Shown: one piece after another, positions 4,376 to 49,695 of the stretch | Layout of the letters: each line of letters opens with the position of its first letter | How positions within the stretch are numbered: position 1 is the stretch's first letter | Origin: a virus | Length of the DNA: 64,000 nt | Direction: 5' to 3' (one strand) | Virus record (IMG/VR): IMGVR_UViG_3300032294_001352 | Location: 1 to 64,000 of that record | Position numbers and translations under genes: made by a program | Notes under the pieces: generated by a model | What the model saw: only the letters and a program-made list of their open reading frames with translations | What the model was told of the DNA's origin: nothing | Database searches by the model: none

Positions 4376-4382
4376 GGAGTAG

Positions 4383-5042: not shown

Positions 5043-5095
5043 TATTGCTGATGCTTGTATGATACAAGTAAGTGGGATTGATAGGAGAATCAAAC

Positions 5096-6343: not shown

Positions 6344-6395
6344 GACTTGATGATGCATGTAGGATAAATCTAGAACGTAGCAAAGGAGAGATACC

Positions 6396-18480: not shown

Positions 18481-21417
18481 GTGGATGATCACGTCATGAG
18501 CAAACCGGAATCATTTGCGCCACCAATCGAAGTCAAGAACAACGCACGCAAAGCGTTGGAGTATCGCGCCAAACTGCCACCAAGTAAGCGTGGTATGACG
18601 GCTGTAGGGATTGCACGCGCACGGGATCTCTCCATTGGTCGTCCACAGTCACTTGACACCATTCAACGGATGGTATCTTTTTTTGCACGTCACGCAGTTG
18701 ACAAGCAGGCTGAGAATTGGGAAGTTGGCAGCAAAGGCTGGCAGGCTTGGATGGGATGGGGTGGTGATGCTGGTCGTCGATGGGCTGAGCGGATTCTCGC
18801 TACGGCCATGAAAGATGAATCCACCGTCAAGAAAGAAGCAACACCTGCGGCATCTGTGAATCCAACACCTGCTCCGTCACCAACTCCGACACCAAAGCCA
18901 ACCGATCCTACACCAACCAAACCTGCTGAACCTGAGGGTGGTATGGCGATTGGCCAACTCCGCGCCATTGCGGACAAGGCCACGCTACTGGCCAACCTGC
19001 TTACTCCAGAAAGCACGCTTGAACCGTGGGTGCTCTCGCTGATCAGCGTGGCTGAGTATCAGGTGGATGCAGTGTCCGATTACTTCAAGTATTCAGGTGC
19101 TGGCAGCCCAGCATCTCAAACATTGACTGCGGCAACGAACCAAGAAGCAAAGAAAGGGCTAGGTATGCAGAAGACATTGCGACCAGTGCCCAGTGACATC
19201 ATTGAAAAGTCACTGACTAGCACTATCACGAAGCGTCAAAAGACGTTTGGTGGTGAACAACGTGAGGATCTGCGTGATGATGATTTCGTCATTGCAGAGG
19301 AACGCAAGTTCCCTATCATGACTGCGGCAGATGTAAGTGATGCTGTCAGTTCATGGGGCCGATATGCAGGTGGGAAGAATGCACGGATCACATTTGACAC
19401 GTTCAAAGATCGCCTTACTGCTTTGGCCACGAAAAAAGGCTTTAAGGATGCACTTCCTGATACGTGGCTAGCAGAAATGGAGGAAGATGACGTGTCACCA
19501 GACAAAGAAGCGTTTGCGAAGTACTACTTCTTTAAGGCTGCCAATCCTGAGCAGCGAGTAGTCGTCGGCTACGCATCATCAGAGCGGATTGATGGCCAAA
19601 ATGACATTGTAGACTCAGAGGCCTTACAACAGGCACTTGATGACTACATGCAATGGGCCAACCTGCGTGAGATGCATCAGCCAAAGGCCGTGGGCAAAGT
19701 GTTGCAGGCCACCCCAGTCAAAGGAAAGATCCGCTTAAGCGATGGTACGGTGCTGGTGAATCCGCTCCGAATCATTGCAAAGATTGTGGATGAGGATGCG
19801 TGGCAAAAAGTCAAGTCAGGCATTCTCAAAGGCTTCTCGATTGGCGGCAAGGTGTTGAACTCTGTCACACAGAAAGTCAACGGTAAGGATGTTCGACGAA
19901 TCACCGGCCTCTCACTCAATGAGATCAGTCTGGTGGATCGTCCGGCCAATCCAGATGCGCGCATCGTCATGATGAAACGTGATAGCAGCATGACGCAGGA
20001 TGACGTGGCCAAGATGGTTAAAGGCGGCATGGTTGATGACTTAATCATGAAAGCCAAGATGGCCGATCCACAAGAAATCCTGCCTATGATTCAGCAACTC
20101 CGCAACCAAGCAGAAGTTGATGGCGATCTTGACACGGCTGAACGCTACAACGAAGTTATCACGCTCATGCTTGAAGCCATGGGGATTATTCCTACTGGCA
20201 CGGTGCGTGAGTTGGATGATATGGAGTCACCGGACATCCTAGACAACACTCCTGAGGATGACATGGATGCCATGGTGGACATGGAAGCGATTTACGGTGA
20301 GAGTGGTGAGGAAGAATCCAAGGCACTCAAACGTCGCAACACCATCATGTACGCTGACCAGCCTGACGATCTTTTGAAGATTGGCCGTGCTATCAGTAAG
20401 AGCAACATGGATACGCTCGCAGACATCCTCACTGCCGCCAACATCATCCGTACTCTGTGTGCCAAACTCGGTTTGGAACTGAAAGAAGAGGCTGATGAGA
20501 ATGAGGGTGGTGAGGAAGCGCATGAGCACAGTGAGGGTGAGGGTGCTATCGCCGTAGCCGTCAAGCCCATTGCCGCAGAAGTCACCACGGTAGAAGAGTC
20601 AATGACACCGACCATTCCAGCCAGCAAAGAGCAGGCCGTGTTGGATGCCATTGAAAACGCACCAAAGAAGATGATGCCAGGCAATAACACTGGATCACCT
20701 ATCCATACGCCAATGAATCCGAACGCGCCAGCCCAAAACGTGACTGGTGGCTATCCGATTCAACGGAACGCACAGAATGGCGATTTGCAAAAGCAGGATG
20801 CTGCTGATGCTGTCGATATAACCGGTTTAGAAAAGGAGATGCAATCAATGGAGCAGACCATTGAGAACGCACCTGTTCAACCTGCCGAGGAAACGCCTAT
20901 TGCCGCACCAGAGGAAACTGCAACCGAAAAGGCAGATACCCCACCGGCTATTGACGTATCAGCAGCGTTACAGGATGTCATCGCCAAGTCGCTACAAGGC
21001 GCATTGGCAGGCACGTTTGCCCAGTTGGACACCGTAGCCAAGGCCGTAGAGCGGATTGAGACGAAGAGCACTGAGTCAAATGCCGCACTCACCGAGTCAA
21101 TCGACGCCACCAAGAAGATGGTTGAACCACTGGTAGAAAAAGTGAGCGCACTTGAAGCCGTGGCAGCCGAAGTCAAAGCCTTGGGTGAGCGATTGCAGGC
21201 CATTGAGTCACAACCTGAGAGTGGTGGTCCGGTGTTGCGTGGCCAATCAGTGAACAAGGCCTTGGGTGTAGGTGGCAATAGCACTGAGGAACCACAAGAC
21301 GAAATCGGTACGCTCCAGAAGATGATTGATGATACGCACGATCCGTTGGTTCGCACCCGACTTCGTGAGCGATTGGCCCATCTGGAAACCAAGAAAGCCC
21401 TCTTTGGGCGCATTTAG
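18481..21417 (+). CDS. Prohead protease (XkdF/S78-like) fused to N-terminal accessory domains and a C-terminal scaffold
   Basis: GYASSERID...LREMHQ..AVGKV...LKGFSIGG...EISLVDRPANPDA; acidic coiled-coil C-terminus; immediately upstream of the capsid gene. Confidence 0.85.
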   Translation: MDDHVMSKPESFAPPIEVKNNARKALEYRAKLPPSKRGMTAVGIARARDLSIGRPQSLDTIQRMVSFFARHAVDKQAENWEVGSKGWQAWMGWGGDAGRRWAERILATAMKDESTVKKEATPAASVNPTPAPSPTPTPKPTDPTPTKPAEPEGGMAIGQLRAIADKATLLANLLTPESTLEPWVLSLISVAEYQVDAVSDYFKYSGAGSPASQTLTAATNQEAKKGLGMQKTLRPVPSDIIEKSLTSTITKRQKTFGGEQREDLRDDDFVIAEERKFPIMTAADVSDAVSSWGRYAGGKNARITFDTFKDRLTALATKKGFKDALPDTWLAEMEEDDVSPDKEAFAKYYFFKAANPEQRVVVGYASSERIDGQNDIVDSEALQQALDDYMQWANLREMHQPKAVGKVLQATPVKGKIRLSDGTVLVNPLRIIAKIVDEDAWQKVKSGILKGFSIGGKVLNSVTQKVNGKDVRRITGLSLNEISLVDRPANPDARIVMMKRDSSMTQDDVAKMVKGGMVDDLIMKAKMADPQEILPMIQQLRNQAEVDGDLDTAERYNEVITLMLEAMGIIPTGTVRELDDMESPDILDNTPEDDMDAMVDMEAIYGESGEEESKALKRRNTIMYADQPDDLLKIGRAISKSNMDTLADILTAANIIRTLCAKLGLELKEEADENEGGEEAHEHSEGEGAIAVAVKPIAAEVTTVEESMTPTIPASKEQAVLDAIENAPKKMMPGNNTGSPIHTPMNPNAPAQNVTGGYPIQRNAQNGDLQKQDAADAVDITGLEKEMQSMEQTIENAPVQPAEETPIAAPEETATEKADTPPAIDVSAALQDVIAKSLQGALAGTFAQLDTVAKAVERIETKSTESNAALTESIDATKKMVEPLVEKVSALEAVAAEVKALGERLQAIESQPESGGPVLRGQSVNKALGVGGNSTEEPQDEIGTLQKMIDDTHDPLVRTRLRERLAHLETKKALFGRI

Positions 21418-21433
21418 GAGGAAGTAGCACACA

Positions 21434-22927
21434 ATGGCAAACATCACTGAAGACACCCTTAATTTGATTAAGGCGGCACATGCCCAGCAGGGTGACAACA
21501 TCAGCAAGAGCATTACCACTGCCAATAATTTGGTGGCGTATGACTTGCAGGCACCGGCTAAGAATCTCTATCCGGTACAGACTCCTATCCGCAACACGTT
21601 GCCACGCACCGGTGGTATCGGTACGGCCACCAACTGGCGCACCGTGCGAAACATCATCGGTTCTGGCTTTGATGCCATGGGCTGGGTGCCGGAAGGCCAG
21701 CGCAGTGGTCGCATGTCGTACTTGACGCAATCACTCAGTGCATCGTATAAGACGATGGGTGAGGAAGATCAAGCAACGTACGAAGCCATTAGTGCTGGTC
21801 GTGGCTTCGAAGACATTCGCGCTCGCATGACCATGCGCTTGTTGCAGAAGTTGATGCTCAAAGAGGAAGCAGCCATCATTGGCGGCAACACTTCGGTTTC
21901 ATTGAGCGCTCCGGCTGCGCCAACCGTCAGTGCTGGTGCCTCAGGTGGTACCGTTGCTGCGGATAACTACTACGTCTGGTGTGTTGCGCTCACCTATGAG
22001 GGGTATCGCAACTCAAGCGTTGCCAGTGGCGTGGCCACGAGTCAGACCATCACCGGTGCTGACGGCCTCACCTACACGTTGAGTGGTGGTTCAAGTGCGG
22101 CATCAGCCATCTCATTGGTCCAAGCCATCACCCTTGGTCAGACGCTCCGTGCATCTGTTCCTGTGGTCAACGGTGCGATTGGCTATGCATGGTACGTGTC
22201 AAAGACCAACAACACGGCTGGTACTGCGTTCTTGCAGGCCATCACCACAATCAACTCAGTGGAGTTCACTGCACCAGTGGTTACGAGCGGCACGCAGTTG
22301 GTTACGGCTATCACGGCCAACAACTCAACCAACACCTTGGCCTTTGACGGCTTGATGTATCAGGCATTCAACACGTCAAGTGGTGCCTACGTGCAGCCAT
22401 TGGCCACCGGTACGGCCGGTACTGGCACTCCGTTGACGGCCAGTGGTCGTGGTTCAGTAGAAGAGATTGACGACATGTTGGTCACGATGTGGAACAACAA
22501 CCAGTTGTCACCCACCGTCATCTACTGTAACGCTCAGGAAATCCGCAACATCTCAAACAAGGTGTTGAGTGGCGGCACCAATGCTCCGTTGGTCCGTTAC
22601 AACCTGAACAATGAGCAATCAATGGCTATCGGTGCTAGCCCATTCATTGACTCATACTTCAATCCAATCACCAAGCAGCCATTGAAGGTGGAAGTGCATC
22701 CAAACGTTCCTCCTGGCACGATCTTGGCCTGGGCTGACAACTTGCCAGCACAGTATCAGTCAAGTGAAGTACCAAACGTGGCTGAAATCCGCGCACGTCA
22801 AGACTACTACCAGATTGACTGGCCTGTCACCAGCCGTCAACAACAGGTTGGCGTGTACGCTGAGGAAGTCTTGGTTGTCTACGCTCCGTTTGCGATTGGT
22901 ATCATCACCAACATCGCCAACGGTTAG
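21434..22927 (+). CDS. Major capsid protein (HK97 fold, with insertion domain)
   Basis: Position after protease-scaffold; AGGAGG RBS; YDLQAPAK.LYP..TP.RN.LPR and AFDGL motifs. Confidence 0.85.
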   Translation: MANITEDTLNLIKAAHAQQGDNISKSITTANNLVAYDLQAPAKNLYPVQTPIRNTLPRTGGIGTATNWRTVRNIIGSGFDAMGWVPEGQRSGRMSYLTQSLSASYKTMGEEDQATYEAISAGRGFEDIRARMTMRLLQKLMLKEEAAIIGGNTSVSLSAPAAPTVSAGASGGTVAADNYYVWCVALTYEGYRNSSVASGVATSQTITGADGLTYTLSGGSSAASAISLVQAITLGQTLRASVPVVNGAIGYAWYVSKTNNTAGTAFLQAITTINSVEFTAPVVTSGTQLVTAITANNSTNTLAFDGLMYQAFNTSSGAYVQPLATGTAGTGTPLTASGRGSVEEIDDMLVTMWNNNQLSPTVIYCNAQEIRNISNKVLSGGTNAPLVRYNLNNEQSMAIGASPFIDSYFNPITKQPLKVEVHPNVPPGTILAWADNLPAQYQSSEVPNVAEIRARQDYYQIDWPVTSRQQQVGVYAEEVLVVYAPFAIGIITNIANG

Positions 22928-36174: not shown

Positions 36175-37359
36175 ATGCAATATACCAACGCACGCTACGC
36201 TGTGTATCTGAATGACTCATTTGGGAATCGGATAGCAGAATTGAACACAGCAGATACCAACCAGTTCATCCGCTTTCGTGCAGTTCGCTCTGTCAACAAC
36301 GTGGGCGCACTCACCATCACGTTTACTGGCGGCAGTCAGGAACCTGCATTCCTGCCTCTACTTGAACGCTTTGGCCTACTCCGCAAAGACTGCATCATTG
36401 AAGTCTGGCGCACCACATCCTTTGTATCAAGTCTGCTGCTTGATACCGTCTGGTTTGTCCGCTCCGTGCAACGCACACTTGCCGCAAACGGTACAATCAC
36501 CGTGGAAATCACGGCCTTTGATCCACTCTACCTGTTGGCTGGTCGATTGTGCTTGAATCTCGGCAGCCGAACACAGACGCAGTTGATTGTGACTGGTAAT
36601 GTGTCAAAAATCATCACGGAGTTGGTCTACTTCAATATCCGTTCCACAAACCTGCTTGGATCAGCACGACGCATTCCAAATCTTACTGCACCCATTAACT
36701 CATTGAATGATATAACACAGGTATCCGTTGACGTGTCAAAGGCAAATCTTCTTGCCGCAATTCAAAACCTGAGTGAGATTAGCATCGCTAACGGTGAACC
36801 AATCTACTTTGACATTGAGTGCAACGCAGCCAACAGTATGCTCTTTAACGTGTATGCTGACCAGCGTGGAGTGGATCGTCGCTCCTTTGAGTCTGGTGGT
36901 GATGGTCGCAGTGCCATTATTAACACGTCAAGCGGCATTATTCGTGAGATGACCATGAATGCTGACTGGACCGATGAAGTGACGGCCGTCTATCCGTGGG
37001 GCAATAACGGTACCACGGCCATTGGCTTCCTCACCGATCCTATCAACCAAGTGGCAGCCTACACCACTCCATACAGTTGGCGTGAGGCCATCAGTGAATC
37101 CGGTAACGCCAACAGTGAAGATGCCGCATTCATGGCCTATAGCATGTTGCAGAATCGACGTGGATCATGGAACGTATCAGCCACACTCCAAGACACCAGT
37201 GACTTCCTATATGGCCGTGACTGGGGATTTGGCGATCGTATCTACATCAATGCGTTTGGTGCTATCATGGATACACGTATCAATTCCATTGAGTTTGTGG
37301 TAGAAGATAAGCAGGAAGTTATCCGGATGGCACTCTCGGTCACAGAGGATTATGTATGA
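36175..37359 (+). CDS. Tail tip / baseplate hub protein (siphovirus Gp37-like)
   Basis: RSVNNVGALTI...YGRDWGFGDRI; position after Dit. Confidence 0.7.
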   Translation: MQYTNARYAVYLNDSFGNRIAELNTADTNQFIRFRAVRSVNNVGALTITFTGGSQEPAFLPLLERFGLLRKDCIIEVWRTTSFVSSLLLDTVWFVRSVQRTLAANGTITVEITAFDPLYLLAGRLCLNLGSRTQTQLIVTGNVSKIITELVYFNIRSTNLLGSARRIPNLTAPINSLNDITQVSVDVSKANLLAAIQNLSEISIANGEPIYFDIECNAANSMLFNVYADQRGVDRRSFESGGDGRSAIINTSSGIIREMTMNADWTDEVTAVYPWGNNGTTAIGFLTDPINQVAAYTTPYSWREAISESGNANSEDAAFMAYSMLQNRRGSWNVSATLQDTSDFLYGRDWGFGDRIYINAFGAIMDTRINSIEFVVEDKQEVIRMALSVTEDYV

Positions 37360-38435
37360 CCAACAATCGCCAGAATCAATCACTCAATCTGCATTCATCA
37401 ACCATCACTACAACGAGTGCGTTGCAGCGTCGCTCATCTGTGTTTCCGATTATTGAGTTCATTGGAAAAAACCAAACACTGTCTGCTGGTGCTAGTACCG
37501 TTATTTTGTGGAATCAGATATTGCGGCAAACTGATCAGCCAATCACATCATGGATACCAGGCAACCAAAACAATACCACATCAAACTTTGTGTGGCCAGT
37601 GTTTGTGAATCCAAGTCTTGGCTTGGTGGATTATCGTATCAAGTTCAATGTGAGCGGATATTACCATATCAGTCTTTCAACGGTACTGGTAAGTGCGTCT
37701 ATTGCAACGCTGACGTTGGTATTGATTGATGGAAGTTATACGTCTGCACCGATTATGCAAACATCTACTCAGACATTCCCATCACAAACGCAGCAAGTCT
37801 TCACTATCATGTTGTACATTGAGGCCGGATGGTCACTTGAATGCTATATCACGTCTACACTGGCCAACACACTCGTTACCAGTGGACTCTATCAAACCGT
37901 TGGTCCATCTCCGCGCCTCACGATTGCTCAGATTGCCCAATTTGAAGACGTGAACGTGGGGAAAATGTCACGCGCAACGAGCAATACCACGATTGCAACA
38001 ACCACAGCCACGCCAACGGTGGTGACATCACTCAGTGTGCCACCTGCGGCACCGGAAGATCCGATTTTAGGATATGTGTACAATGCTGGTGGTGGGAATC
38101 AACTGAATATTTTTGATGGAAGAACCAATAATCGCTTAATCATCTCACAGTCAGGTATCTATCTGATTCACGGACAAATTACGCTCCGAAATGAGAATAC
38201 ATCAGTTGGTACACGGCTTATTGTGTTAGCAGCAAATAACGCTACCGTACTTGCGAGTCAGTCACTTGCCGCAAATGCAAACGCTGGTCGATGGCTAAAC
38301 ATATCAGTCATTTTTCCGTTGAATGCTGGTGATTATCTCCAAGTCTATGGTCTACAAAACAGTGGTGGAAATATTGATATGGTTACATTTGGCATAAGTC
38401 ATAGCATATCTGCCACGCTACTCACTGCAACGTAG
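37356..38435 (+). CDS. Tail fibre / receptor-binding protein with two C1q/TNF-like domains
   Basis: SG.Y.I and LNAGDYLQVYGLQNSG motifs. Confidence 0.6.
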   Translation: MTNNRQNQSLNLHSSTITTTSALQRRSSVFPIIEFIGKNQTLSAGASTVILWNQILRQTDQPITSWIPGNQNNTTSNFVWPVFVNPSLGLVDYRIKFNVSGYYHISLSTVLVSASIATLTLVLIDGSYTSAPIMQTSTQTFPSQTQQVFTIMLYIEAGWSLECYITSTLANTLVTSGLYQTVGPSPRLTIAQIAQFEDVNVGKMSRATSNTTIATTTATPTVVTSLSVPPAAPEDPILGYVYNAGGGNQLNIFDGRTNNRLIISQSGIYLIHGQITLRNENTSVGTRLIVLAANNATVLASQSLAANANAGRWLNISVIFPLNAGDYLQVYGLQNSGGNIDMVTFGISHSISATLLTAT

Positions 38436-38924: not shown

Positions 38925-39449
38925 ATGATTACAACTGTGAGTAGAACCGGTAGTGGTCAAGTGTTTCCATCACAACCTGGTGGCACTGGTGCGTTTGTGC
39001 AGTTCAACACGATTGTGAGCAACGATCTTGGTACTGAATCATTTGTGCAGAGAGAGTTTGATCCATTTTTGAATCTCACGATTTCATTCCCATACACATT
39101 TCCTGATGATGGGATTCGGATTACGTTTTCCGGATTGTACTACATCACGGCCGGAATCTCTTTTGCTGCACAAACGCAATTAGGAATCAATCGCCTTTTG
39201 TACATTTGGCGCTCAGACATCACGCAAAATCGGTCAGCAGCCTACTATGCCGCATCCTCCCACACCACAATCAATAACACGTCAGTGCATCTGATGAATG
39301 TCAGTACGTCTATGCAGTTATTTGAGGGTGATGTTTTGCGCGTGTTTGTTTCTCAAGCGTCATCTGTGACCACTACCACTACATCAGCCACATCTGCCAC
39401 CACAGGATGTTTTGACGCATTTCTTACTGCTGCACTAATTATCCAGTAG
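38925..39449 (+). CDS. C1q/TNF-like tail accessory protein
   Basis: SGLYYITAGISF...LFEGDVLRVFVSQ. Confidence 0.55.
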   Translation: MITTVSRTGSGQVFPSQPGGTGAFVQFNTIVSNDLGTESFVQREFDPFLNLTISFPYTFPDDGIRITFSGLYYITAGISFAAQTQLGINRLLYIWRSDITQNRSAAYYAASSHTTINNTSVHLMNVSTSMQLFEGDVLRVFVSQASSVTTTTTSATSATTGCFDAFLTAALIIQ

Positions 39450-39484
39450 GTATCTCACACGTCATTGTGCAAGACACCTACTGG
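39443..39484. terminator. Hairpin between convergent genes
   Basis: CCAGTAGG...CCTACTGG inverted repeat. Confidence 0.5.
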
Positions 39485-39495
39485 ATTGAGCGATC

Positions 39496-42400
39496 CTACT
39501 TTTTTTTTCCGGCCGGTGGATAGGTGTTCTTGGCCGGTGCCTGCAAGTCACGCTTCTTTCCCTGCTTGACTCCAATAGATGGCACGAACGCAGACGTGAT
39601 GTCTTTTTTCATGCCAGCCTTTTGCCGCAGTACTTCCGCTCCGGTGGATTGGTTCTTGGGTGACATGATGTTCTTGGGCATGGCCGTAGTATCACTCATG
39701 GCCTTACTCACTTTGCGTGCAGCCGTGCTACGACCACCAGACGTGTTGACGCGCACCGTTGACGTGCTGTGTGTGCCAGCACCGTAGCCAGGTACAGACC
39801 ACGCAAGATCACTTCCTTTGCCGCCAACATAACTTGGGCCTTGGTCCGTGGCCACTCGACCAGTGTACGTTCCTTTTGGCGTTGGCACTGGTGTGCTTTG
39901 TGGGGGCACAGCGCGCTTCTTCACAGGAGTAGCACGCTTTGCCATCTTCTGTGTGCCAATCAAATCCACAGGATCAGCAAACGTCTTTTGCTCCGTGCTC
40001 AGTTTTGGTTGTGACGTGCTTGCCGCACGCTTCTTCATAGGAGTAGCAGCCTTTTTCATGTTCACTCCGTGTTTTGATGATAACGCTTGTAAGTCTGACT
40101 GGGCTTTGCTGATGGCAGCCTGCTTCTTTAAGTCAGAGGAAATAGCACTGAGCGCAATCTGACGATCGTATCCGGTGCGTTTTGGACCACGATCACTCAC
40201 ACCCTTTGACGGTGGGGCTGTGTAGCGTGTTGGTTCTGGCTTTGAGGCAACCGTTGGCGTAGGTGCTGGTGTTGCTGCAGGTGTAGGAGTAGGCGCACTA
40301 GGCATGTTGGCCTCACCTGCACTTGGCGTAGGTGCTGGTGTTGGCGTAGTGGCAGGCTTTGGCGTAGCATATTGCTTGGCCTTGTTCTTGTTCCATGACG
40401 CAGTGCGCTTGGACCACTCTTCATAGGCCTTCCGATTGGCTTCCATCTGTGCAGCCGTTGGTCCAGGCTTGGTTGACGGTGGCTGAGTTGTACCAGTTGG
40501 CTTTGCCGCACTTCCTGATGTCATTGGGCCTTTTGGCAGTGACGTGTACGGTGGCGCAGGCCGTGCCTTTTCCTTTGGTGTTGACGTGGCCACAGGTGGC
40601 TTCCCAGACGTAGCAGGTGCACTCGGCTTTGTACCAGTTGGCTGTGCGGAACTGGTTGGTTTAGTCGTTGACGTAGCAACAGGTGGCCGTGTGGTAGACG
40701 TAGGAGCACCTAATCCCACATCACCGGCTGCCGCAGTTGGCCGTGGCGTGTACGTAGGAATGCTAGTGCCAGTTGGTCGTGGACTACTCGTTGGCACAGA
40801 AGTACTTGTTGGCTGCTTTGTGCTGGTTGATCGTGGCGTACTTGTGGCCAGATTCCCACCGGATTTTGGCGTTGCTGTGGTGGTCAAGCCGACATCACCG
40901 GCTGCCGCAGTCGGACGCGGAGTACTGCTCGGCTGAATGGTGCTTGTTGGCCGTGGCGTATTGGTCGGAATCGTCGTGCTTGACGGCCGTGGTGTGCTTG
41001 TTGGCTGCGGAGTATTGGTTGACGTGCGCGTGCTTGTTGCAGTACGCGTGTTACTGGCTGTTGGAGTCTGAGTGATGATGGTTGGTTCAATCAAATCAGA
41101 CTCAACTTCTTCAATGGTACGAGTATTGGTGGCCGTTGGCGAACGTGTGCCAGTCGCGGTTGACGTGGCCGTGGCTGTCGGCGAGCGAGTACCAGTTACT
41201 GTGGCTGTCGGTGTTTCCGTGGCACCAGTAGGTGTTGGCGTGCGTGTTCCTCGGGTGGCCAGTTCCGTTTCTGCCGCACGTACTTTCCCTTTTTCCTGCT
41301 CATACCGGCCTTGCGATCCGTAGATGTCATAGTAGGAAGTACCGTATGGCACTTCAATGTTTCGTGTGGGATACGCAGTGCGCGTAGCCGTGGCCGTAGG
41401 AGTGGATGTTGGCGTGCTAGTAGCCGTGGCAGTTTCCGTTGACGTAGCCGTTGGCGTTGGTGTGAACGTCATACCTGGCGGCAAACCAGTATCTTCCGTA
41501 GGTGATGGTGTAGCCGTTGGTGTAGCCGTTGGTGTAGTCGTTGGTGTGGCTGTGGTTGCTGATGTAGCCGTAGCCGGTAAGCCATCATCAGACATCCGAC
41601 TGCGACCACTTCGTGCGCTATAGCGTTGCGTGGTCTTTGCTGGTCGTGCCTTGGTCACCTGCTTGGCTTTGGCCATCTTTGGAGTCATTGGTACGTTCAT
41701 GGACCACTCAATCGTTGGTTCTGCCGCACCCATGCGTGTGACGTGACGATCCTCACGCTCTTTCTTGAAGTCTTTGACTGACTTTGGTGTGTTGAGTTTG
41801 ACACCCTTTTTCATGGTGGTAGCCTTTGCACTGAGCGCAATCTGACGATCATATCCAGTACGCTTTGGACCACGGTCACTCACGCCTTTAGGAGCAGGAG
41901 CACCGGTGGTCAACCGAGTGCGTGGTGGTGTGGGATTAGCAGCCGGAGTTGGCGTGGGAGCAGGTGCTAGAGCAGTTGTTGCCGCAGGTGCTGGTGCTGG
42001 AGCGGATGGCTTATCAATTCCTACATCACCAGACGCAGCCGACGGCTTGGGTGCAGCGTACTGTTGTGACTTTGTTTTGTTCCATGTAGCAGTGCGCTTT
42101 GCCCATGACTCATAGGCCTTACGGTTGGCCTCCATTTGCTCCGGTGTTGGACTAGGCTTAGATGCGCCAGTTCCTGGCCGATCTGACTTTGGACCTGCCG
42201 CAGTAGCAGAGTAATCACTAGGTGAGCGCCCACTTGCATTTGGCGTGGCCGTTGGCGTGGCCGTAGATGGTGGCTGTGTACCTGATCGTTTTGCAGGAGC
42301 ACGAGTGGCAGTACGTGTTGGCGTACGAGTAGGAGTTCGTGTTTTGGCTTGTGCTGTCTGCGTCTTTTGCCGCACAGCCGTCTGTGTCTTCTGCGGATTA

Positions 42401-42897
42401 GTTTGAGTAGCAGTACGAGTAGCAGTACGAGTAGCCGTGCGTGAGGCCGTTGGCGTAAACGTTGGGGCTACCGTGGTCGCTGTGAGTGACGGTGTTGATG
42501 TTGTAGTTGGCGTAGCCGTATCCGTAGGCACACGCGTGTACGTAGGTGACGGTGTGCGTGTGCTGGTTGGTGTGGTGGTAGGCGTACCAGTAGCCGTAGC
42601 CGTGTTAGTCGGTGTACTAGTACTTGTAGCCGTATTGGTAGCCGTGGCCGTTGTTGACGGAGTTGGCGTGGATGACGGAGTAGGAGTGGAAGTGCTTTGC
42701 ACTGGTGGTTTGGATGTTGGTCGCGGTGCCCATCGTGGTGCCGCAATTCCACTATCAGGAGTTGGTGTGATTGTTGACGGTGGCTGCGTTGATCCAATAG
42801 TAGCAGACCGACGCACTACTTTCCGTTTTTGCACCTTAGCGTTTGAAAGTGTCTTCTTCATATCTGTCCTTTGTGCAACAGGGGAATCAGCACTCAA
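39496..42897 (-). CDS. 1133-aa Thr/Pro/Lys-rich disordered protein with internal duplications
   Basis: Long open frame; TPT repeats; duplicated MEANRKAYE.W.KRTA.WNK and KGVSDRGPKRTGYDRQIALSA blocks; start could instead be 42861. Confidence 0.75.
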   Translation of the reverse strand: MSADSPVAQRTDMKKTLSNAKVQKRKVVRRSATIGSTQPPSTITPTPDSGIAAPRWAPRPTSKPPVQSTSTPTPSSTPTPSTTATATNTATSTSTPTNTATATGTPTTTPTSTRTPSPTYTRVPTDTATPTTTSTPSLTATTVAPTFTPTASRTATRTATRTATQTNPQKTQTAVRQKTQTAQAKTRTPTRTPTRTATRAPAKRSGTQPPSTATPTATPNASGRSPSDYSATAAGPKSDRPGTGASKPSPTPEQMEANRKAYESWAKRTATWNKTKSQQYAAPKPSAASGDVGIDKPSAPAPAPAATTALAPAPTPTPAANPTPPRTRLTTGAPAPKGVSDRGPKRTGYDRQIALSAKATTMKKGVKLNTPKSVKDFKKEREDRHVTRMGAAEPTIEWSMNVPMTPKMAKAKQVTKARPAKTTQRYSARSGRSRMSDDGLPATATSATTATPTTTPTATPTATPSPTEDTGLPPGMTFTPTPTATSTETATATSTPTSTPTATATRTAYPTRNIEVPYGTSYYDIYGSQGRYEQEKGKVRAAETELATRGTRTPTPTGATETPTATVTGTRSPTATATSTATGTRSPTATNTRTIEEVESDLIEPTIITQTPTASNTRTATSTRTSTNTPQPTSTPRPSSTTIPTNTPRPTSTIQPSSTPRPTAAAGDVGLTTTATPKSGGNLATSTPRSTSTKQPTSTSVPTSSPRPTGTSIPTYTPRPTAAAGDVGLGAPTSTTRPPVATSTTKPTSSAQPTGTKPSAPATSGKPPVATSTPKEKARPAPPYTSLPKGPMTSGSAAKPTGTTQPPSTKPGPTAAQMEANRKAYEEWSKRTASWNKNKAKQYATPKPATTPTPAPTPSAGEANMPSAPTPTPAATPAPTPTVASKPEPTRYTAPPSKGVSDRGPKRTGYDRQIALSAISSDLKKQAAISKAQSDLQALSSKHGVNMKKAATPMKKRAASTSQPKLSTEQKTFADPVDLIGTQKMAKRATPVKKRAVPPQSTPVPTPKGTYTGRVATDQGPSYVGGKGSDLAWSVPGYGAGTHSTSTVRVNTSGGRSTAARKVSKAMSDTTAMPKNIMSPKNQSTGAEVLRQKAGMKKDITSAFVPSIGVKQGKKRDLQAPAKNTYPPAGKKK

Positions 42898-42935: not shown

Positions 42936-43928
42936 TTATTCACTCTTGCGACGTTTGCTCATCTTGCGAACTGGTGGCTTTATGTTTGGCACAGGCATCG
43001 TGGTATCTGGTCGCCGAGTTGGCGTTGGCTTTGGATACACAGGCATTGTGGTATCCGGCTTGCGAGTTGGCTTGGGCATTGGTGGTGGAGGAAGTGCCTT
43101 GCTCATCTTCTTTGCCGCACTACCCTTGCTGCCAACGTTCTTGGCACTTGTTGGTCGGCCCATGATGGCACCAGATGGCATTTGCTCTACGACCATGGGC
43201 TTCTTTGCATTAGCAGCCGACATCATAGGAGCAGCATCATTCCATCGCTGCGCATCAATTTTGTCTTTGTTGCCTTTGCTCATCATGCCTTTTTTCGTAT
43301 TGAACATGACCAACTTCTTGTCAATCTCGCTTTTGGTTGACTTGCCGCCCTTACTCATCTTAGTCGGATGTGACTCAGGTGCTTTCTGGCCATCAATGTA
43401 CGCGCCTTGGCCTTTACCCATTCCCATTCCACGACTCATTCCAACTGGTTTGCCGCCACTCATGACTGGTCGTGTGATAGGTTTTGGTGCTGGCATTGGT
43501 CGTGGCTGATTTGGCATTCCAGGCATAGGCATTCCAGGCTTTGGTGGCATTGTCACCTTGCTCATACCCTTGGCCATCTTACCCATCCCACCACACTTAC
43601 ACATAGCACCCTTGCGCATCTTACTGCCGCACTCAGGACAACTCATACCCTTGGCCATTTTGCCATAGGTATCCATCTCCACAAGGAGATCTGGATCGTA
43701 ATCACGGATAACATCCTTTTCACTGCGATACGCAGCATCCTCTTTCTTCTTACGAGGCATGGGCTTTCCTTTCTGAAACGGATTCATTCCGCTCCGCAAA
43801 TCCACCGGTGGCGTGCGCATCAGTGATGAACTGGTGTTGAACACGCCTGACTGCGGCATTGGACTAGATACTATCGTGCCACGAAGTGGCGTACGATACA
43901 GTGGAGATTGATCACGACGCTTATTCAT
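42936..43928 (-). CDS. Basic Met/Lys/Pro-rich protein with repeated KMxKG motifs
   Basis: Open frame; alternative start at 43760 with AAAGGA RBS; CPEC/CKC mini-finger. Confidence 0.65.
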   Translation of the reverse strand: MNKRRDQSPLYRTPLRGTIVSSPMPQSGVFNTSSSLMRTPPVDLRSGMNPFQKGKPMPRKKKEDAAYRSEKDVIRDYDPDLLVEMDTYGKMAKGMSCPECGSKMRKGAMCKCGGMGKMAKGMSKVTMPPKPGMPMPGMPNQPRPMPAPKPITRPVMSGGKPVGMSRGMGMGKGQGAYIDGQKAPESHPTKMSKGGKSTKSEIDKKLVMFNTKKGMMSKGNKDKIDAQRWNDAAPMMSAANAKKPMVVEQMPSGAIMGRPTSAKNVGSKGSAAKKMSKALPPPPMPKPTRKPDTTMPVYPKPTPTRRPDTTMPVPNIKPPVRKMSKRRKSE

Positions 43929-44133
43929 CCCAGTGCTTTCGTGGGCGCTGGTATGAACCAACTTGCAAGTGCTTGACGGACACCTCACGCAGTTTCTCTG
44001 GAAACGTGTCAAACGTCTGTGCCTTTGGTGGTGTCCGGTAGTTGGGCGCACGTTGGCCAAATGCATTGGCCTCATTGTACGTGCTGGCTTGCGGCACCTT
44101 GGTGTTAGCAGTCGTGCTTGATGGCTTAGACAT
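43921..44133 (-). CDS. Small basic protein
   Basis: Shares VSV..LQVGSY with 44794-45744. Confidence 0.6.
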   Translation of the reverse strand: MSKPSSTTANTKVPQASTYNEANAFGQRAPNYRTPPKAQTFDTFPEKLREVSVKHLQVGSYQRPRKHWDE

Positions 44134-44136
44134 CTG

Positions 44137-44793
44137 CTAGCCTTTCTTGCGTGGGCGCATCGCCTTGGTCAGATCTGCACTTGCAGGCTTCCCATTGATG
44201 AATGCGCCTTGGCCTTTTGCCATCTTCTGTGAAGTACTTCCTTTGCTGCCCACGTTCTTTGCGCTAGTTGGCCGAGCAAGGATTTTTCCTTTGTTTGGGC
44301 CTTTGCTATCTAGGCTAGATGGCTGCATGGTAACGACAAGTGGACCTTGCTTTGCATTTGCCGCACTCATATTGTTGGCTGTGTTGGCCCATTGTTGTGC
44401 ATCTTGCATTGCTTGACCACGAGGCGTTCGTTTGATTCCACCCCAGTACACCTCAGTGTCTTTGGGATTTTGAGGAATATTCACGACTTTACTGACTTTG
44501 CGATTTGATGACGTTGATGATGCCGCACTCTTGACCATTCCTTTGGTTCGTCCACGATTAGGTTTGGCGCGCGACTCAAACATCATTGGTTCTTTCTCAG
44601 TGTAATACCGAGTACCAGTCTGATTGGAGATAGCGCGTGCTGGAACTTCTTGCATCATCATTCCAGCCGTGTTCTTTCCCTCAAGTTTTGCACCTGCAGC
44701 AGCCCAGTTCCTTGCCTCTTGCCGCACGCGTGGCAGTGGCGTTGCATCCTCAATAGGTTCAGTATTGCGTCGCTTCTTCATTGTGCTCTCCAC
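44137..44793 (-). CDS. Basic low-complexity protein
   Basis: Shares MSAANAK, RPTSAKNVGSKGS and KGQGA.I.G with 42936-43928. Confidence 0.65.
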   Translation of the reverse strand: MESTMKKRRNTEPIEDATPLPRVRQEARNWAAAGAKLEGKNTAGMMMQEVPARAISNQTGTRYYTEKEPMMFESRAKPNRGRTKGMVKSAASSTSSNRKVSKVVNIPQNPKDTEVYWGGIKRTPRGQAMQDAQQWANTANNMSAANAKQGPLVVTMQPSSLDSKGPNKGKILARPTSAKNVGSKGSTSQKMAKGQGAFINGKPASADLTKAMRPRKKG

Positions 44794-45744
44794 TTATTTC
44801 TCTGACGGAGTGTTACCAGCCTTGGGATTGGTCTTGTATGAACCAACCTGCAGCCGTGACACGCTCACATCCTTAAAGCCACGATCCGGCACGTTGTCAT
44901 TGGTTTCCGTGTACTGCGTCTTCTTTGCGGCATTCAAGCCTTTGGTCCACGGACCACGACCAGTCTGCGTCTTTCCGGCCTCATACGAACCAACTTCCAA
45001 CCGGCTAATGCTTGGAGTCTTAGCATCCGTTGGATTGGCAATCTTCTGAATACGATCCCCGTTACCCATGGTGGTCATTCCTTTCTTGATGGTAGCAGTA
45101 CGCTGCCCAGTTGTCATACCTTTTTCCATCTTTGCCGCATCTTTACCACGAGGCATTCTGATGGGTGGAAGTATATCCCGATATTTGGTGTGCAACTCAT
45201 AAAAGTTGTACTTCCCTGGCTTGATGGTAACACCCTTGAATGTTACCGGTTTCTTCAGTTCAAAATTACCCCTGTCATCTGGTTGCGTAGCGATTGGTTT
45301 TAACCACGCTGGTAATTGTGGAAACTTAGATGGTTTTGGTCGTGGATTATTTGGATTCCAAAGATTCCTATCATCTTGTGCCGCAGGTTTAGGTGCACTT
45401 ACACTTGCACTTGATGATGGCTTAGGAGCAGGTGTTGACGTTGGCTTTGGAGCGGATACCGTTGACGTTGGTGTACTTACTCGTGGTGGTGTCATGCGTG
45501 ATGCAACCGTAGGAGCAGGAGTAACTGCCGCTTGCACAGTAGGCTTGGGTAACTGTGGAGTTGCAGATGGCATTGACTGAGATGGTTTGGCTGGCTGAAA
45601 TGGGAGCAACGGCTTTCCATACTGGGGCTTGGTTGATCCCTGATTCATAGGTATTGCAGCGTTCTTGTGCATCCGCTTGTTCGCACAGGTGCAATTCTTC
45701 ATGCCGCATACCGGACAAATCCCCTTGCGCGTATGTTTGGCCAA
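44794..45744 (-). CDS. Basic Pro-rich protein
   Basis: CPVC..KNCTC N-terminus; two S.SRL.VGSY repeats; AAAGGGGGTG RBS. Confidence 0.65.
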   Translation of the reverse strand: MAKHTRKGICPVCGMKNCTCANKRMHKNAAIPMNQGSTKPQYGKPLLPFQPAKPSQSMPSATPQLPKPTVQAAVTPAPTVASRMTPPRVSTPTSTVSAPKPTSTPAPKPSSSASVSAPKPAAQDDRNLWNPNNPRPKPSKFPQLPAWLKPIATQPDDRGNFELKKPVTFKGVTIKPGKYNFYELHTKYRDILPPIRMPRGKDAAKMEKGMTTGQRTATIKKGMTTMGNGDRIQKIANPTDAKTPSISRLEVGSYEAGKTQTGRGPWTKGLNAAKKTQYTETNDNVPDRGFKDVSVSRLQVGSYKTNPKAGNTPSEK

Positions 45745-46368: not shown

Positions 46369-46827
46369 ATGGGGCGCAATCGAAAAAAGTCTGGCGTAGG
46401 CGCAGTGACTGCGGCACCGGCACCACCGGAGCGTGGTGGTGAGCGTGTGCGAATGGATCGTGCGTTCAATCAACTTCCGGTGGATCGCATCATTCAAGAA
46501 CTGCGTGACAACGTCAGTTTTAACCTACCAGACGTAGAAGACACGTACCGTGAGCGTGACACCGGATTCTCTATAGATAACCGTCAGGAAATGCAAGACT
46601 TCATTGACCAGTTGATGAGTGCGAAGCGGCAAGATGGTTCATGGGATATGAACGCACTGGATGCAGCAGCGCAATACTTCCAAGACGCTCCGTCACGCGA
46701 AGTGTTTTTCCCTGATAATAAAGCAAGAATTGGTGACTTTGGTGAGGAACTGGCTGGCTTCTTACGAGATGTGCGGCAAGCGTATGAACGTGGTGGTGAC
46801 GAGGCAGTTCGTCAGTTAGGAGTGTAG
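46369..46827 (+). CDS. MGRNR-tagged protein 7
   Basis: MGRNRKKSGVGAV; shares R..DG...M.A..AAAQ with protein 4. Confidence 0.75.
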   Translation: MGRNRKKSGVGAVTAAPAPPERGGERVRMDRAFNQLPVDRIIQELRDNVSFNLPDVEDTYRERDTGFSIDNRQEMQDFIDQLMSAKRQDGSWDMNALDAAAQYFQDAPSREVFFPDNKARIGDFGEELAGFLRDVRQAYERGGDEAVRQLGV

Positions 46828-46828
46828 T

Positions 46829-47725
46829 ATGCCATTTGTGATGCAAGAGCGACCAGACGGCCGGATTAACGTCGTCAATCCAATTACTGGGGAAGTCAAA
46901 GGCACGCACAAGAACAAGCGGCAAGCGTTGGCACAGATGCGTGCGTTGTACGCCAATGTACCAGATGCAATGCAGAAGCGTCGTAACAATGAACCGACCA
47001 ATCCGCAACTGTGGATGCAGGCCAAGAACCAGGCTAAGCGTCGATTCACGGTGTATCCATCAGCCTATGCCAATGCGTGGGCAGCACGGTGGTATAAGGA
47101 GCATGGAGGTGGATGGAAAGAAGCATCATCACCACCGACGGAAACGCGTGATCCACGGAGCGTACAGAAAGATCTGCGTGAGTGGTTTAAGGAAGACTGG
47201 GTGGACATCTCTAAGCCTATCCGTGAGAACGGAAAGATTGTTGGCTATGAGCAATGCGGCAGGGCTGAGGCTGAGGCCTCTGAGGGTGGTTATCCCAAGT
47301 GTCTGCCCAAAGCCAAAGCAATGAAGTTGTCAGAGATGGACCGGTTGAAACTGATTGCACGGAAGCGTCGTGCTGGTACGCCAACGGATGGCAAACCTAT
47401 CATGACAAGCAGCATGACGAAGAAAGCGGCAACGGCTAAGGCACTCTTACAGAAGATGCAGCGGATGTATCAACCTGAGGAATGGGTGGACATTACCAAG
47501 CCTATCCGTGACAACGCAGGATTGATTGTGGGCTTTCAAGATGTCACCTACAAAAAGGAAGCCAAGTTTCCTATGCGTCGTCAGCAGGCTGTCAAGATGA
47601 CGGAGCAAGAGCGGCAAGCACTTATCCGCAATCGCTTTGGCCACATGCTTACGGATGATGGTGTACCAGTTGCGTCAAAGAAAGAAAAGACCATGAAGAA
47701 GTATGGTCGGTACAAGCGTCAGTAG
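46829..47725 (+). CDS. DUF5872-like basic multi-module phage protein
   Basis: YPSAYANAWAARWYKEHGGGW; LREWFKEDWVDI..P; CGR...YPKCLP; WVDI.KPIR occurs twice. Confidence 0.6.
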   Translation: MPFVMQERPDGRINVVNPITGEVKGTHKNKRQALAQMRALYANVPDAMQKRRNNEPTNPQLWMQAKNQAKRRFTVYPSAYANAWAARWYKEHGGGWKEASSPPTETRDPRSVQKDLREWFKEDWVDISKPIRENGKIVGYEQCGRAEAEASEGGYPKCLPKAKAMKLSEMDRLKLIARKRRAGTPTDGKPIMTSSMTKKAATAKALLQKMQRMYQPEEWVDITKPIRDNAGLIVGFQDVTYKKEAKFPMRRQQAVKMTEQERQALIRNRFGHMLTDDGVPVASKKEKTMKKYGRYKRQ

Positions 47726-47739
47726 CACTGAGGAAACAC

Positions 47740-48567
47740 ATGGGAAGAAATCGCAAACCATCTCGGGAAGTTGCAGCACCTGCGGCAAGTGTGGAGTCCG
47801 TGAGCAAACGGATTAACACCACGCTTGAAGACGCACTCTGGTCCATGTCCACACAAGGCCTCATCTATGATGGCGAGTACGTGGTGCGTGACAATCTGGC
47901 CGACGAAGCCTTTCGAGATGGAATGCGTTATCTGGGGCTGAATCCAGATCGGCCTCGCGATGTGGAGATTATTGCGGCAGCCATAGGAATCTTTGGCGAG
48001 GAAGAAAGTGACATCTACGTGCGCCCAGCAGATGCTCAGTACGATATGGGAATCATATCCATGAGCATGGCTGCAGAAGCCCAACGTGGATTCAAAGTGC
48101 TGCCAGATAAAGTGGTCGTGGAAAACGTGTCATTTGCCAAAGGCCTCACTCCGTCAGACAACATTGGCTATGCAATGCTCGTGCGGCAAGCGTGGGCACT
48201 CCGAAAGATCGGTGAGCGATTAGGCAAACCAGTGGTAGTCAGCACGTCAGCACTCAGTGATGATGACTACTGGAAAGGCGTGCAAGTGTGGCCAAAGATG
48301 GGCTACAACTTCCCACTCACAGGTATTATCCGTGAGCGTGCCATGGCCAATGGCTTCCAAGCACGCAACACTCCGGAACTGATGACTGAAGTCAATGCCG
48401 CAGGCGAAACAGGATACGATGCGTGGGGCAGGATCGTTAGTGAGGCGTTGAAATACATGCCAGACAAAGAACTCCGTATCCGTGGCAGCATGACGGTGAC
48501 GGATGACAATGATACTGGACTTCAGGTGTTGTTGAACTATGGGCGGCAAAAAGGAATATTGGAGTAG
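47740..48567 (+). CDS. MGRNR-tagged protein 8, GNAT-like
   Basis: MGRNRKP; IGYAMLVRQA...GVQVWPKMGYNF. Confidence 0.65.
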   Translation: MGRNRKPSREVAAPAASVESVSKRINTTLEDALWSMSTQGLIYDGEYVVRDNLADEAFRDGMRYLGLNPDRPRDVEIIAAAIGIFGEEESDIYVRPADAQYDMGIISMSMAAEAQRGFKVLPDKVVVENVSFAKGLTPSDNIGYAMLVRQAWALRKIGERLGKPVVVSTSALSDDDYWKGVQVWPKMGYNFPLTGIIRERAMANGFQARNTPELMTEVNAAGETGYDAWGRIVSEALKYMPDKELRIRGSMTVTDDNDTGLQVLLNYGRQKGILE

Positions 48568-48570
48568 CAC

Positions 48571-49692
48571 ATGGGCAGGAATCGACGTAAAGCCGGAGTA
48601 GGTGCTGTGGAGCGTGCAGTCTATGACATCTTTGGCAACATCATTGGCCAAGAAGATGACGTTGCTCCTACTCCTACGGAAACCATCACTACCATATCCG
48701 ATCCTGACTTTGAACACGTAGATACCACCGTGTTCAATCCTGTGGCATACTCTGCAACGTTACAAACTATGCTCAAAGAGCAATATGCTGATATGAATCA
48801 AGTGATCTCTATAGGAATGGAGTATTTGAAATCTATATCTGGCAATTCTCAGGATGACTGGATAATAAATAACATGCCGCAAGTACAAACTGTAAAAGGA
48901 ATGATTGCATTAGGATTAGATCCTCAAGTACCGTCTGATAGACGTTTATATACTGATTTAATATCAGGAACAAGCAATTTTTATTCAGGTAAGTGGAATC
49001 CCTCACCTGAAGAAAGAAAGGAAATGCGAAAGCAAGATGCATCTGTACCTGATACTGGAGATGTAGAGTTTGAAGTAGGATTCAGCAGACGCATTAAAGT
49101 AGATAATCCAACAAAAGTAGTAATATCCAATGTGTCATTTTCAGCATCAAAGACTGCTCCTCCAGGAATTGGCTATATGATGATTGCACGTCAGATTAGT
49201 GCCGCGCGTCAACTTGCAAAAAAATTAGGAAAACCAGTAGAGATTGAAACAACTGCTCATAACTCAGAACAATCACAAAAAACAAAGAAGGGTAATACCG
49301 GTTTTCACGTTTGGCCAAAACTTGGCTATGTCTTTGAGATTCCTGAAACCGTCAAAGTTGAATTGCGTCGCATGGGATTTACAGACAAACAAATGAACAA
49401 TTCAGCAACACTGATGCAAAGCCGAAATCCACAAGGCCAACTTGGTTTTGACGTGTGGAGTAAAGCACTAGTAGCAGAAGGTGATAGTAAGTGGGCTGTG
49501 AATGGAAGAACAGTCATAAATCCGAATGCATCAACACCATCACCTGCTGAGCAAGTCACGATTGCCTACGGAAAGCGCAAAGGCTATCTCAAAATGCAGC
49601 AGAATAAGCGGCAAAACAATGACGTGTTCCTCAGTTCAGAAGATGACGCAATCCTACGTGACGTGTGGGCTTCCATGGGAAGATTGGAGTAG
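48571..49692 (+). CDS. MGRNR-tagged protein 9, GNAT-like
   Basis: MGRNRRKAGVGAVERAVYDIFGN; GIGYMMIARQI...GFHVWPKLGYVF. Confidence 0.65.
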   Translation: MGRNRRKAGVGAVERAVYDIFGNIIGQEDDVAPTPTETITTISDPDFEHVDTTVFNPVAYSATLQTMLKEQYADMNQVISIGMEYLKSISGNSQDDWIINNMPQVQTVKGMIALGLDPQVPSDRRLYTDLISGTSNFYSGKWNPSPEERKEMRKQDASVPDTGDVEFEVGFSRRIKVDNPTKVVISNVSFSASKTAPPGIGYMMIARQISAARQLAKKLGKPVEIETTAHNSEQSQKTKKGNTGFHVWPKLGYVFEIPETVKVELRRMGFTDKQMNNSATLMQSRNPQGQLGFDVWSKALVAEGDSKWAVNGRTVINPNASTPSPAEQVTIAYGKRKGYLKMQQNKRQNNDVFLSSEDDAILRDVWASMGRLE

Positions 49693-49695
49693 CAG

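Follow-up and report, generated by a model that had tools for sequence, protein, structure and literature searches.

In the virus record IMGVR_UViG_3300032294_001352, a giant, disordered, threonine- and proline-rich (T/P-rich) protein of 1,133 amino acids (aa) ends in a near-perfect copy of a segment of the phage's own major capsid protein (MCP). The copy, DLQAPAKNTYP, lies close to the C terminus of the giant protein, and the original, DLQAPAKNLYP, occupies residues 37-47 of the MCP, in what corresponds to the N-terminal arm (N-arm) of the capsid proteins with the HK97 fold. The stretch of DNA that we analyzed, called the window here, is the first 64 kb of this 87,876-bp record; feature coordinates are collected in Table 1. 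We tentatively propose that the C-terminal ~38 residues of the giant protein act as a capsid-docking (cargo-loading) peptide. By mimicking the N-arm, this peptide would bring its basic, disordered carrier into the procapsid—a reading we treat as a serious possibility rather than as a probable one.

How exact is the resemblance, and could it have arisen by chance? Deriving both proteins anew from their open reading frames (ORFs) gave identity at 10 of 11 residues, as an earlier note on this DNA had reported, and the likeness that it described at the DNA level was recovered as well: 28 of 32 bases agree between 39549-39518 on the minus strand and 21542-21573, including an exact run of 17 bases. 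The codons of the giant gene and the MCP gene differ as GCC/GCT, AAC/AAT, and ACC/CTC, and the same codon is used for 7 of the 10 shared residues within the window. The giant protein ends ...RDLQAPAKNTYPPAGKKK (...GVKQGKKRDLQAPAKNTYPPAGKKK followed by the stop; also written MKKDITSAFVPSIGVKQGKKRDLQAPAKNTYPPAGKKK), so that the stop codon (39496-39498) and a PAGKKK tail (39499-39516) are all that separate the motif (39517-39549) from the end of the gene. As a chance control, the 82 ORFs of the window (20,103 aa) were shuffled 300 times over whole proteins and 300 times within local 30-residue segments. The shuffled proteomes contained, on average, 0.0033 (whole-protein) and 0.0067 (local) pairs at 10/11 identity or better, and the MCP was involved in none of the 600. 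The match is not due to chance, and the observation is solid. It is also the only match of at least 8/10 between the giant protein and any other ORF of the genome, and a six-frame scan of all 87,876 bp, allowing up to three to four substitutions, found no third copy of the motif.

The protein that carries the original is the major capsid protein: its ORF (21434-22927) matches phrog_13692 (E = 1.7e-106), is matched in tblastn to the annotated "major capsid protein" of Arthrobacter phages Mufasa8 and Sonali, and lies directly behind the gene for an S78 prohead protease. In an alignment of 97 MCPs (A3; 56-94% identity), no stretch of 11 residues is better conserved than DLQAPAKNLYP (mean identity 0.997), and D37-P47, exactly the limits of the shared block, is the only run of more than four columns at ≥97% conservation. 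Among 209 distinct MCPs, 190 read DLQAPAKNLYP, 11 end the block in NLFP, and 8 differ at position 3 or 4; in the close clade (69-94% identity) all 29 are canonical. A version of the block pattern that excluded Y or F before it returned 11 further MCPs (with I before the D) and one 25-aa ORF. The MCP of Brevundimonas phage Polewnik, at 40% identity, reads DLEAGAKFLYP, from which it follows that the MCP segment is ancient and that the giant protein copies the version of its own group. Second copies of the block were absent from the 41 of 62 kb of Polewnik that were read, from ten IMG/VR records of MCP relatives (one of 80.8 kb), and from 80 loci with flanks of ±10 kb.

Where in the capsid protein does the block lie? 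An AlphaFold2 (AF2) model of the MCP built from 97 sequences reached a predicted local distance difference test (pLDDT) score of 77.7 and a predicted template modeling (pTM) score of 0.77; a model from 22 sequences (pLDDT 41.6) was discarded. The HK97 core and the inserted beta domain are modeled confidently, and residues 19-35 and 39-47 have pLDDT <50; that the monomer model leaves a conserved segment unplaced is as would be expected of an interface or quaternary-contact element. Although a search of PDB sequences with the MCP gave no match, Foldseek aligned the model with the capsids of SU10, SPO1, and HK97 (E = 1e-10 to 1e-6), and VIA aligned it with HK97 chains at Z 17.6-19.2, the best being Prohead II (2gp1_A; Z 19.2, root-mean-square deviation 3.7, 246 residues). 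The MCP thus has the HK97 fold. The first aligned pairs place model residue 33 at HK97 residue 119 (2gp1_A and 3qpr_A), 44 at 126 (2ft1_G, Head II), and 46 at 128 (1ohg_A, mature head), which puts the block, with approximate mapping, in the N-arm upstream of the first core strands (HK97 104-132). On this model the block would fall in the distal half of the N-arm, at roughly HK97 119-131. An extract of the HK97 literature (PMC10275583) describes N-arm residues ~119-129 as taking, in Prohead II, a site under the hexon that the scaffold domain holds before cleavage, with the cleavage point at K103/S104. The earlier note's idea of a capsid N-arm mimic therefore stands as far as the position of the original is concerned, model residues 33-46 falling near HK97 119-128.

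Is the copy a peculiarity of one genome? Homologs that lack the motif had been named in the earlier note as what would refute mimicry, and most homologs of the giant protein carry it. A phmmer query made up of its C-terminal 323 residues, run against 1.84 billion representative proteins, returned 15 relatives (P0001-P0015; 150-468 aa). A core, KDI..FVPSIGV, is present in 14 of these, and a recognizable DLQ-type motif follows it in 13, in 11 of them at the terminus. P0009 retains a degenerate remnant of the motif only, P0008 matches only the duplicated block upstream, and the motif of P0001, DLQAPAKNLYP, is identical to that of the MCP at 11/11 residues. Across the module alignment (A2), K-D-I, F-V-P-S-I-G-V, D, and Q are invariant. 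The core DNA pattern was also found in four metagenome contigs (L103-L106), and in none of the IMG/VR contigs or GTDB genomes. On L103, L105, and L106 the module ends a giant T/P-rich ORF (1,068, 609, and 586 aa read, respectively) that runs off the contig or remains open at its 5' end, as in L103; L104 holds only the last 107 aa. All four contigs have the module gene convergent with small tail-fibre genes, the synteny of the window, and L105 additionally encodes homologs of the window's 1,776-aa fibre protein and of the tape measure. The giant low-complexity bodies cannot be aligned, which makes the module the best-kept part of the protein; the last 75 aa are 80% identical to those of L106. 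Other routes to relatives gave none: the last 284 aa against IMG/VR contigs, the giant protein against four IMG/VR records (where an empty result carries no weight) and against a collection of cultured phages (with the low-complexity filter on), a word-index search with residues 890-1133 against proteins of 623-1,983 aa, A2 against IMG/VR contigs (38 pattern matches, 0 confirmed), and the ESM Atlas, which yielded no usable match. Five records of MCP relatives from the 62% clade hold the MCP copy only, without the module.

Between the window and L103-L106, the 38-39 codons of the module have accumulated 15-19 synonymous and 5-7 nonsynonymous changes, and this predominance of synonymous change points to selection on the peptide rather than on a DNA or RNA element. 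An element acting at the level of DNA or RNA is ruled out, since the relatives encode the same peptide with different codons. The same comparison bears on a functionless origin, in which recombination or gene conversion copied a patch of the MCP gene onto the end of a fast-evolving low-complexity gene. The 17-base exact run and the 7 of 10 shared residues with the same codon are what such an event would leave, and, because other phages encode the same residues differently, some recent homogenization in this genome is possible. Yet the motif is kept in relatives that differ at most synonymous sites, and 13 of the 15 database relatives, whose lengths vary greatly, retain it, so that this explanation appears close to refuted. 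In this respect too the earlier note's idea gained support: the mimic is a conserved and selected family feature and not a one-off.

The body of the giant protein fits the name it was given in the earlier note: 239 T and 154 P among 1,133 residues, with 147 A, 113 S, and no Cys. Its 152 K+R and 57 D+E give a net charge of +95, and searches of Pfam and PHROG found no match to it. The true start is probably ATG 42861, giving 1,121 aa, a choice favored by an AAGGA 7 nt upstream and by the L103 ortholog, which likewise starts MKKT. Two internal blocks (residues ~229-364 and ~793-925) are duplicates, with 83 of 124 residues identical in a local alignment. The giant protein shows a strong enrichment of Met-x-Lys (8 of 19 Met, p = 3e-5), as do a 379-aa neighbor (13 of 37 Met, p = 2.6e-4) and the database relatives (39 of 106 Met; sequences concatenated, initiator Met counted in). 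Such sites may be protease sites or internal translation starts, either of which would give nested products with a common C-terminal module.

How might the module work? By analogy with HK97, the MCP 11-mer would line the inside of the capsomer, filling a groove that scaffold holds in the early procapsid. A look-alike peptide could then bind the N-arm groove in trans during procapsid assembly, and docking would tether the strongly basic, disordered protein of ~1,100 residues inside the shell. Tethering would lead to enclosure of the giant protein with the DNA and perhaps, later, to its ejection. An internal location is consistent with the net charges, which are +95 for the giant protein and +51, +25, and +34 for neighbors encoded in the same cluster, against −45 for residues 501-900 of the scaffold. 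A hydrophobic-x-Lys just before the module (MKK/DI; compare ISK/SI at MCP residues 23-27), conserved in A2, may permit the S78 protease to cut the anchor off. The earlier note had envisaged the motif as a second targeting mechanism alongside an MGRNR tag, which is plausible as an inference. As an observation in its own right, MGRNR[KR]K.G.GAV opens about ten ORFs of the window (2623-6396, 17349 on the minus strand, and 46369-49696).

A different explanation for the shared block itself is that the S78 prohead protease recognizes it or cuts there, removing the N-terminal part of the MCP and the C-terminal tail of the giant protein at the same sequence. The protease gene directly upstream of the MCP gene fits this, as do the enrichment of M-x-K in the giant protein, its 379-aa neighbor, and the relatives, and the parallel between the M-K-K-D-I that opens the module and the I-S-K-S-I of MCP residues 23-27; HK97 itself is cut at K103/S104. 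However, eleven invariant residues far exceed what such sites need, and neither the scaffold nor any other ORF has a third copy, even with 4/11 substitutions allowed. The block moreover aligns to HK97 residues lying about 15-25 positions past the cleavage point, which the mature shell retains, and trimming 6-17 residues from a protein of 1,100 has no obvious use. We regard a protease site as decidedly unlikely.

The scaffold offers a further comparison. The 978-aa ORF upstream of the MCP gene (18481-21417), a protease fused to a scaffold-like half, is a candidate partner or processing enzyme. Its C-terminal ~45 residues (21283-21417 in the window), compared across 48 loci, resemble the N-terminal helix of the MCP (21434-21500). 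The hhalign score of this likeness is 20.7 (P = 2.8e-4), against 7.9 for a reversed control and at most 10.8 for 30 column shuffles; the MCP N terminus reads ...DTLNLIKAAHAQ..., and scaffolds of the 62% clade end ...EERTLALIKAAHANPIRP.... Judged by sequence, then, the C termini of two proteins, the scaffold and the giant, appear to imitate adjoining segments of the extension at the MCP N terminus, which fits the docking proposal. This invites a broader and rather doubtful generalization: that head loading in this phage group proceeds by self-mimicry, each interior-bound protein finishing in a copy of one segment of that extension and plugging into the final groove of the N-arm. If each copy sat in that groove, maturation itself would displace such proteins or lock them in place.

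Alternatively, the scaffold domain of the 978-aa protein could grip the MCP block as a handle, and the copy on the giant protein would let the scaffold core pick it up just as it does the MCP, in the way that T4 internal proteins ride the scaffold core. Scaffold C termini adjoin the N-arm in 80alpha and also in P22 and T7, according to extracts of the structural literature; the acidic half of the scaffold (−45, residues 501-900) would suit a partner of +95; and targeting in T4 and P1, described in an extract of PMC9024508, provides precedents. But scaffold C termini differ fully between clades, ...VRTKLRE..LE.KK.F in the close clade being wholly unlike the ending in the 62% clade, whereas the MCP block is invariant in both, and a changing grip on a fixed handle is not expected. 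The flanks of the module are also very basic, as are the last 30 residues of the window's own scaffold. This explanation seems to us unlikely.

Does the copy follow the original? The earlier note had proposed looking for co-variation of motif and MCP among related phages, and none emerged: the MCP block is fixed (190 of 209) while the mimic drifts at positions 4, 7, and 9. Such a comparison cannot come out positive, because the MCP block does not vary. Four river metagenome runs contain the L106-type giant gene, whose motif reads DLQDPATN. Their MCP-like contigs, which may or may not belong to the L106 phage, number one in X1, one in X5, and three in X2, and all keep DLQAPAKNLYP with 6 synonymous and 0 nonsynonymous changes in 11 codons; X4 gave no such contig, which does not prove absence.

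The fixity of the block is, at first sight, attractive for another suggestion of the earlier note, interference with competing phages. As a decoy, the copy would poison the assembly of related superinfecting phages or titrate a host defense sensor of the MCP N-arm, and with the block identical in 190 of 209 distinct MCPs one peptide would suit many rivals; SaPI1 CpmB, in the extracts discussed below, shows that C-terminal mimicry is able to redirect assembly. The suggestion found no support, and the phage's own, identical MCP would be struck equally. Nor was there any sign of prophage-state expression or of a separate early promoter (6 promoter-like sites against a shuffle mean of 4.4), and the module is missing from the five records of the 62% clade and its pattern from IMG/VR and GTDB contigs. 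We consider a decoy very improbable.

Several observations weigh against a docking peptide that mimics the N-arm. The giant gene is not part of the head module but of a minus-strand cluster that follows the tail-fibre genes. Nothing in the MCP significantly matches the invariant core of the C-terminal module: a 27-column hhalign match between module and MCP falls to P = 0.05 (probability 1%) once the 11-mer is removed, and it thus rests on the 11-mer, the upstream similarity not being significant. Four relatives (P0012-P0015) carry extra modules without a DLQ block, from which it follows that the block may modulate a function residing in the core; the block may, then, be accessory to another function. 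Position 4 of the motif is A in 203 of 209 MCPs, whereas the 15 modules have A (8), S (6), or D (1) there, and position 9 of the module motif is L, A, T, V, M, I, or K. The module thus tolerates changes never seen in the MCP, as would be expected if it were constrained less tightly or in another way. Among the contigs read, only the window has a module gene together with its MCP, and the mapping onto HK97 is approximate, because VIA gives the ends of aligned ranges only and the local pLDDT is low. The reading as a whole is built on sequence comparison and a monomer model of the MCP. As a separate observation, P0012-P0015 (163-468 aa) have two modules each, the last of which ends ...GKKK[NH]DGMPSTFI[VL]DHKKKK in place of the DLQ block, indicating a second kind of C-terminal ending in the family.

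How does the proposed docking peptide compare with known ways of loading proteins into shells? In the extracts of PMC11664910 and PMC8346489, Family 1 encapsulin cargo carries a C-terminal targeting peptide that binds an inner-face site formed by the N-helix and P-domain, and Family 2 cargo has a long disordered domain with conserved motifs of 5-10 residues. Like encapsulin cargo, the giant protein has a short conserved C-terminal peptide and a shell of the HK97 fold, and, like that of Family 2, a short motif on a long disordered protein; the MCP model aligns with encapsulin shells at VIA Z 16.5-18.0. The module does not resemble the Family 1 consensus (PMC8346489), its best ungapped match being 3/13, a value equaled by 1,656 of 2,000 shuffles. 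Unlike an encapsulin, the shell here is a DNA-packaging phage capsid, and the module copies the shell's own N-arm, a kind of copying that the extracts do not report for encapsulins.

Targeting within phages gives further parallels. Otherwise unrelated proteins, among them P1 DarB and the internal proteins of T4, are sent to the prohead by a short terminal peptide, and foreign proteins have likewise been sent into the T4 capsid (extract of PMC9024508); these signals are not described there as capsid-protein-like, whereas the module copies a segment of the MCP. The T4 and P1 signals are N-terminal, unlike the module at the extreme C terminus. Internal cargo of T4 is basic, and the prohead protease removes its signal. 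The 80alpha scaffold binds the inner face of the MCP, next to the N-arm helix, through its final 16-21 residues, a "helix-and-hook" of an amphipathic helix plus RIIK; with a copy of this C terminus, SaPI1 CpmB competes for that site (extracts of PMC5644958 and PMC6893505). The arrangement proposed here would be analogous, with a C-terminal peptide at the MCP inner face and a second protein bearing a copied peptide. CpmB, however, mimics the scaffold and not the MCP; the module lacks RIIK, and its Pro and Gly would break any helix of the 80alpha or CpmB kind; and in place of a small helical satellite dimer there is the phage's own giant disordered protein. The exchange of N-arm and scaffold domain in HK97 is also similar, the block mapping to about the ~119-129 stretch of the N-arm, but there both ligands are on one polypeptide, whereas here an N-arm-like ligand is on a separate protein. 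The C-terminal part of the HK97 maturation protease reportedly (Duda, Oh and Hendrix 2013) suffices to carry itself and fused passengers into proheads. To our knowledge, no resemblance of that encapsidation signal to the MCP N-arm has been reported. By these analogies, the module would work like a capsid-targeting or cargo-loading peptide, yet it belongs to none of the named families that we tested. Open-access full-text searches returned nothing pertinent on N-arm mimics or on disordered T/P-rich internal phage proteins.

The choice of proteins for enclosure with DNA is understood in only a few model phages (T4, P1, P22, HK97), among which we found no case of a signal that copies the shell protein itself. 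If docking by N-arm mimicry is true, terminal copies of the MCP N-arm would be a readable rule for packaged proteins in uncultured phages, a mechanistic link would join phage heads and encapsulins, a whole class of unannotated giant, basic, low-complexity phage proteins would gain a role, and the 38 residues would be a tag for cargo loading. If the broader self-mimicry were true, tailed phages would have an encapsulin-like, C-terminal, portable loading tag that could be used for foreign proteins.

Table 1. Positions of the features discussed, in window coordinates
Feature	Position	Strand	Description
Giant basic low-complexity ORF	39496..42897	-	1,133 aa from TTG 42897
Conserved C-terminal module	39499..39612	-	38 aa: MKKDITSAFVPSIGVKQGKKR + motif + PAGKKK; K+R 10, D+E 2
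Motif DLQAPAKNTYP	39517..39549	-	Look-alike of MCP residues 37-47
Internal duplication, copy 1	41806..42213	-	Residues ~229-364, EQMEANRKAYESW...KGVSDRGPKRTGYDRQIALSA
Internal duplication, copy 2	40123..40521	-	Residues ~793-925
Major capsid protein	21434..22927	+	497 aa; HK97 fold with inserted beta domain
MCP N-arm block DLQAPAKNLYP	21542..21574	+	MCP residues 37-47; original of the putative mimic
Prohead protease (S78) fused to acidic scaffold-like C-terminal half	18481..21417	+	978 aa; PF04586, PF14550, head maturation protease PHROGs
Perfect hairpin	39441..39486		20 bp; between convergent giant gene and tail-fibre gene; terminator-like
Three or four further basic disordered proteins	42936..45744	-	Encoded upstream in the giant-gene cluster; net charges of three +51, +25, +34

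The genome is probably complete, circular or circularly permuted, because the two ends of the record (1-123 and 87754-87876) overlap by 123 identical bases. The hairpin starts eleven bases past the stop of the giant gene; its folding energy of −33.4 kcal/mol (z = −8.0) was equaled by none of 200 shuffles, and it is probably a bidirectional terminator that marks the true 3' end of the gene. Motif scans of the ORFs showed the module and motif to be absent from the basic disordered proteins upstream, which bear short Cys-x-x-Cys clusters close to one end. These proteins share blocks with one another: p218 matches p379 at 56% identity across 63 aa, and an "L.VGSY" block recurs. The nearest long records among IMG/VR relatives (G007 and G008) stop in or just past enormous fibre genes, short of the position of the giant gene; in them, homologs of the 1,776-aa fibre protein reach at least 3,773 aa (L107, G007:12000-25888) and at least 2,901 aa (L108, G008:10000-22015). 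The small genes at 37356-38435 and 38925-39449 probably encode TNF/C1q-like receptor-binding tips, judging from matches to PF00229 (TNF family) at 0.0044, below the cut-off, for the former and at 1.6e-6, above it, for the latter.

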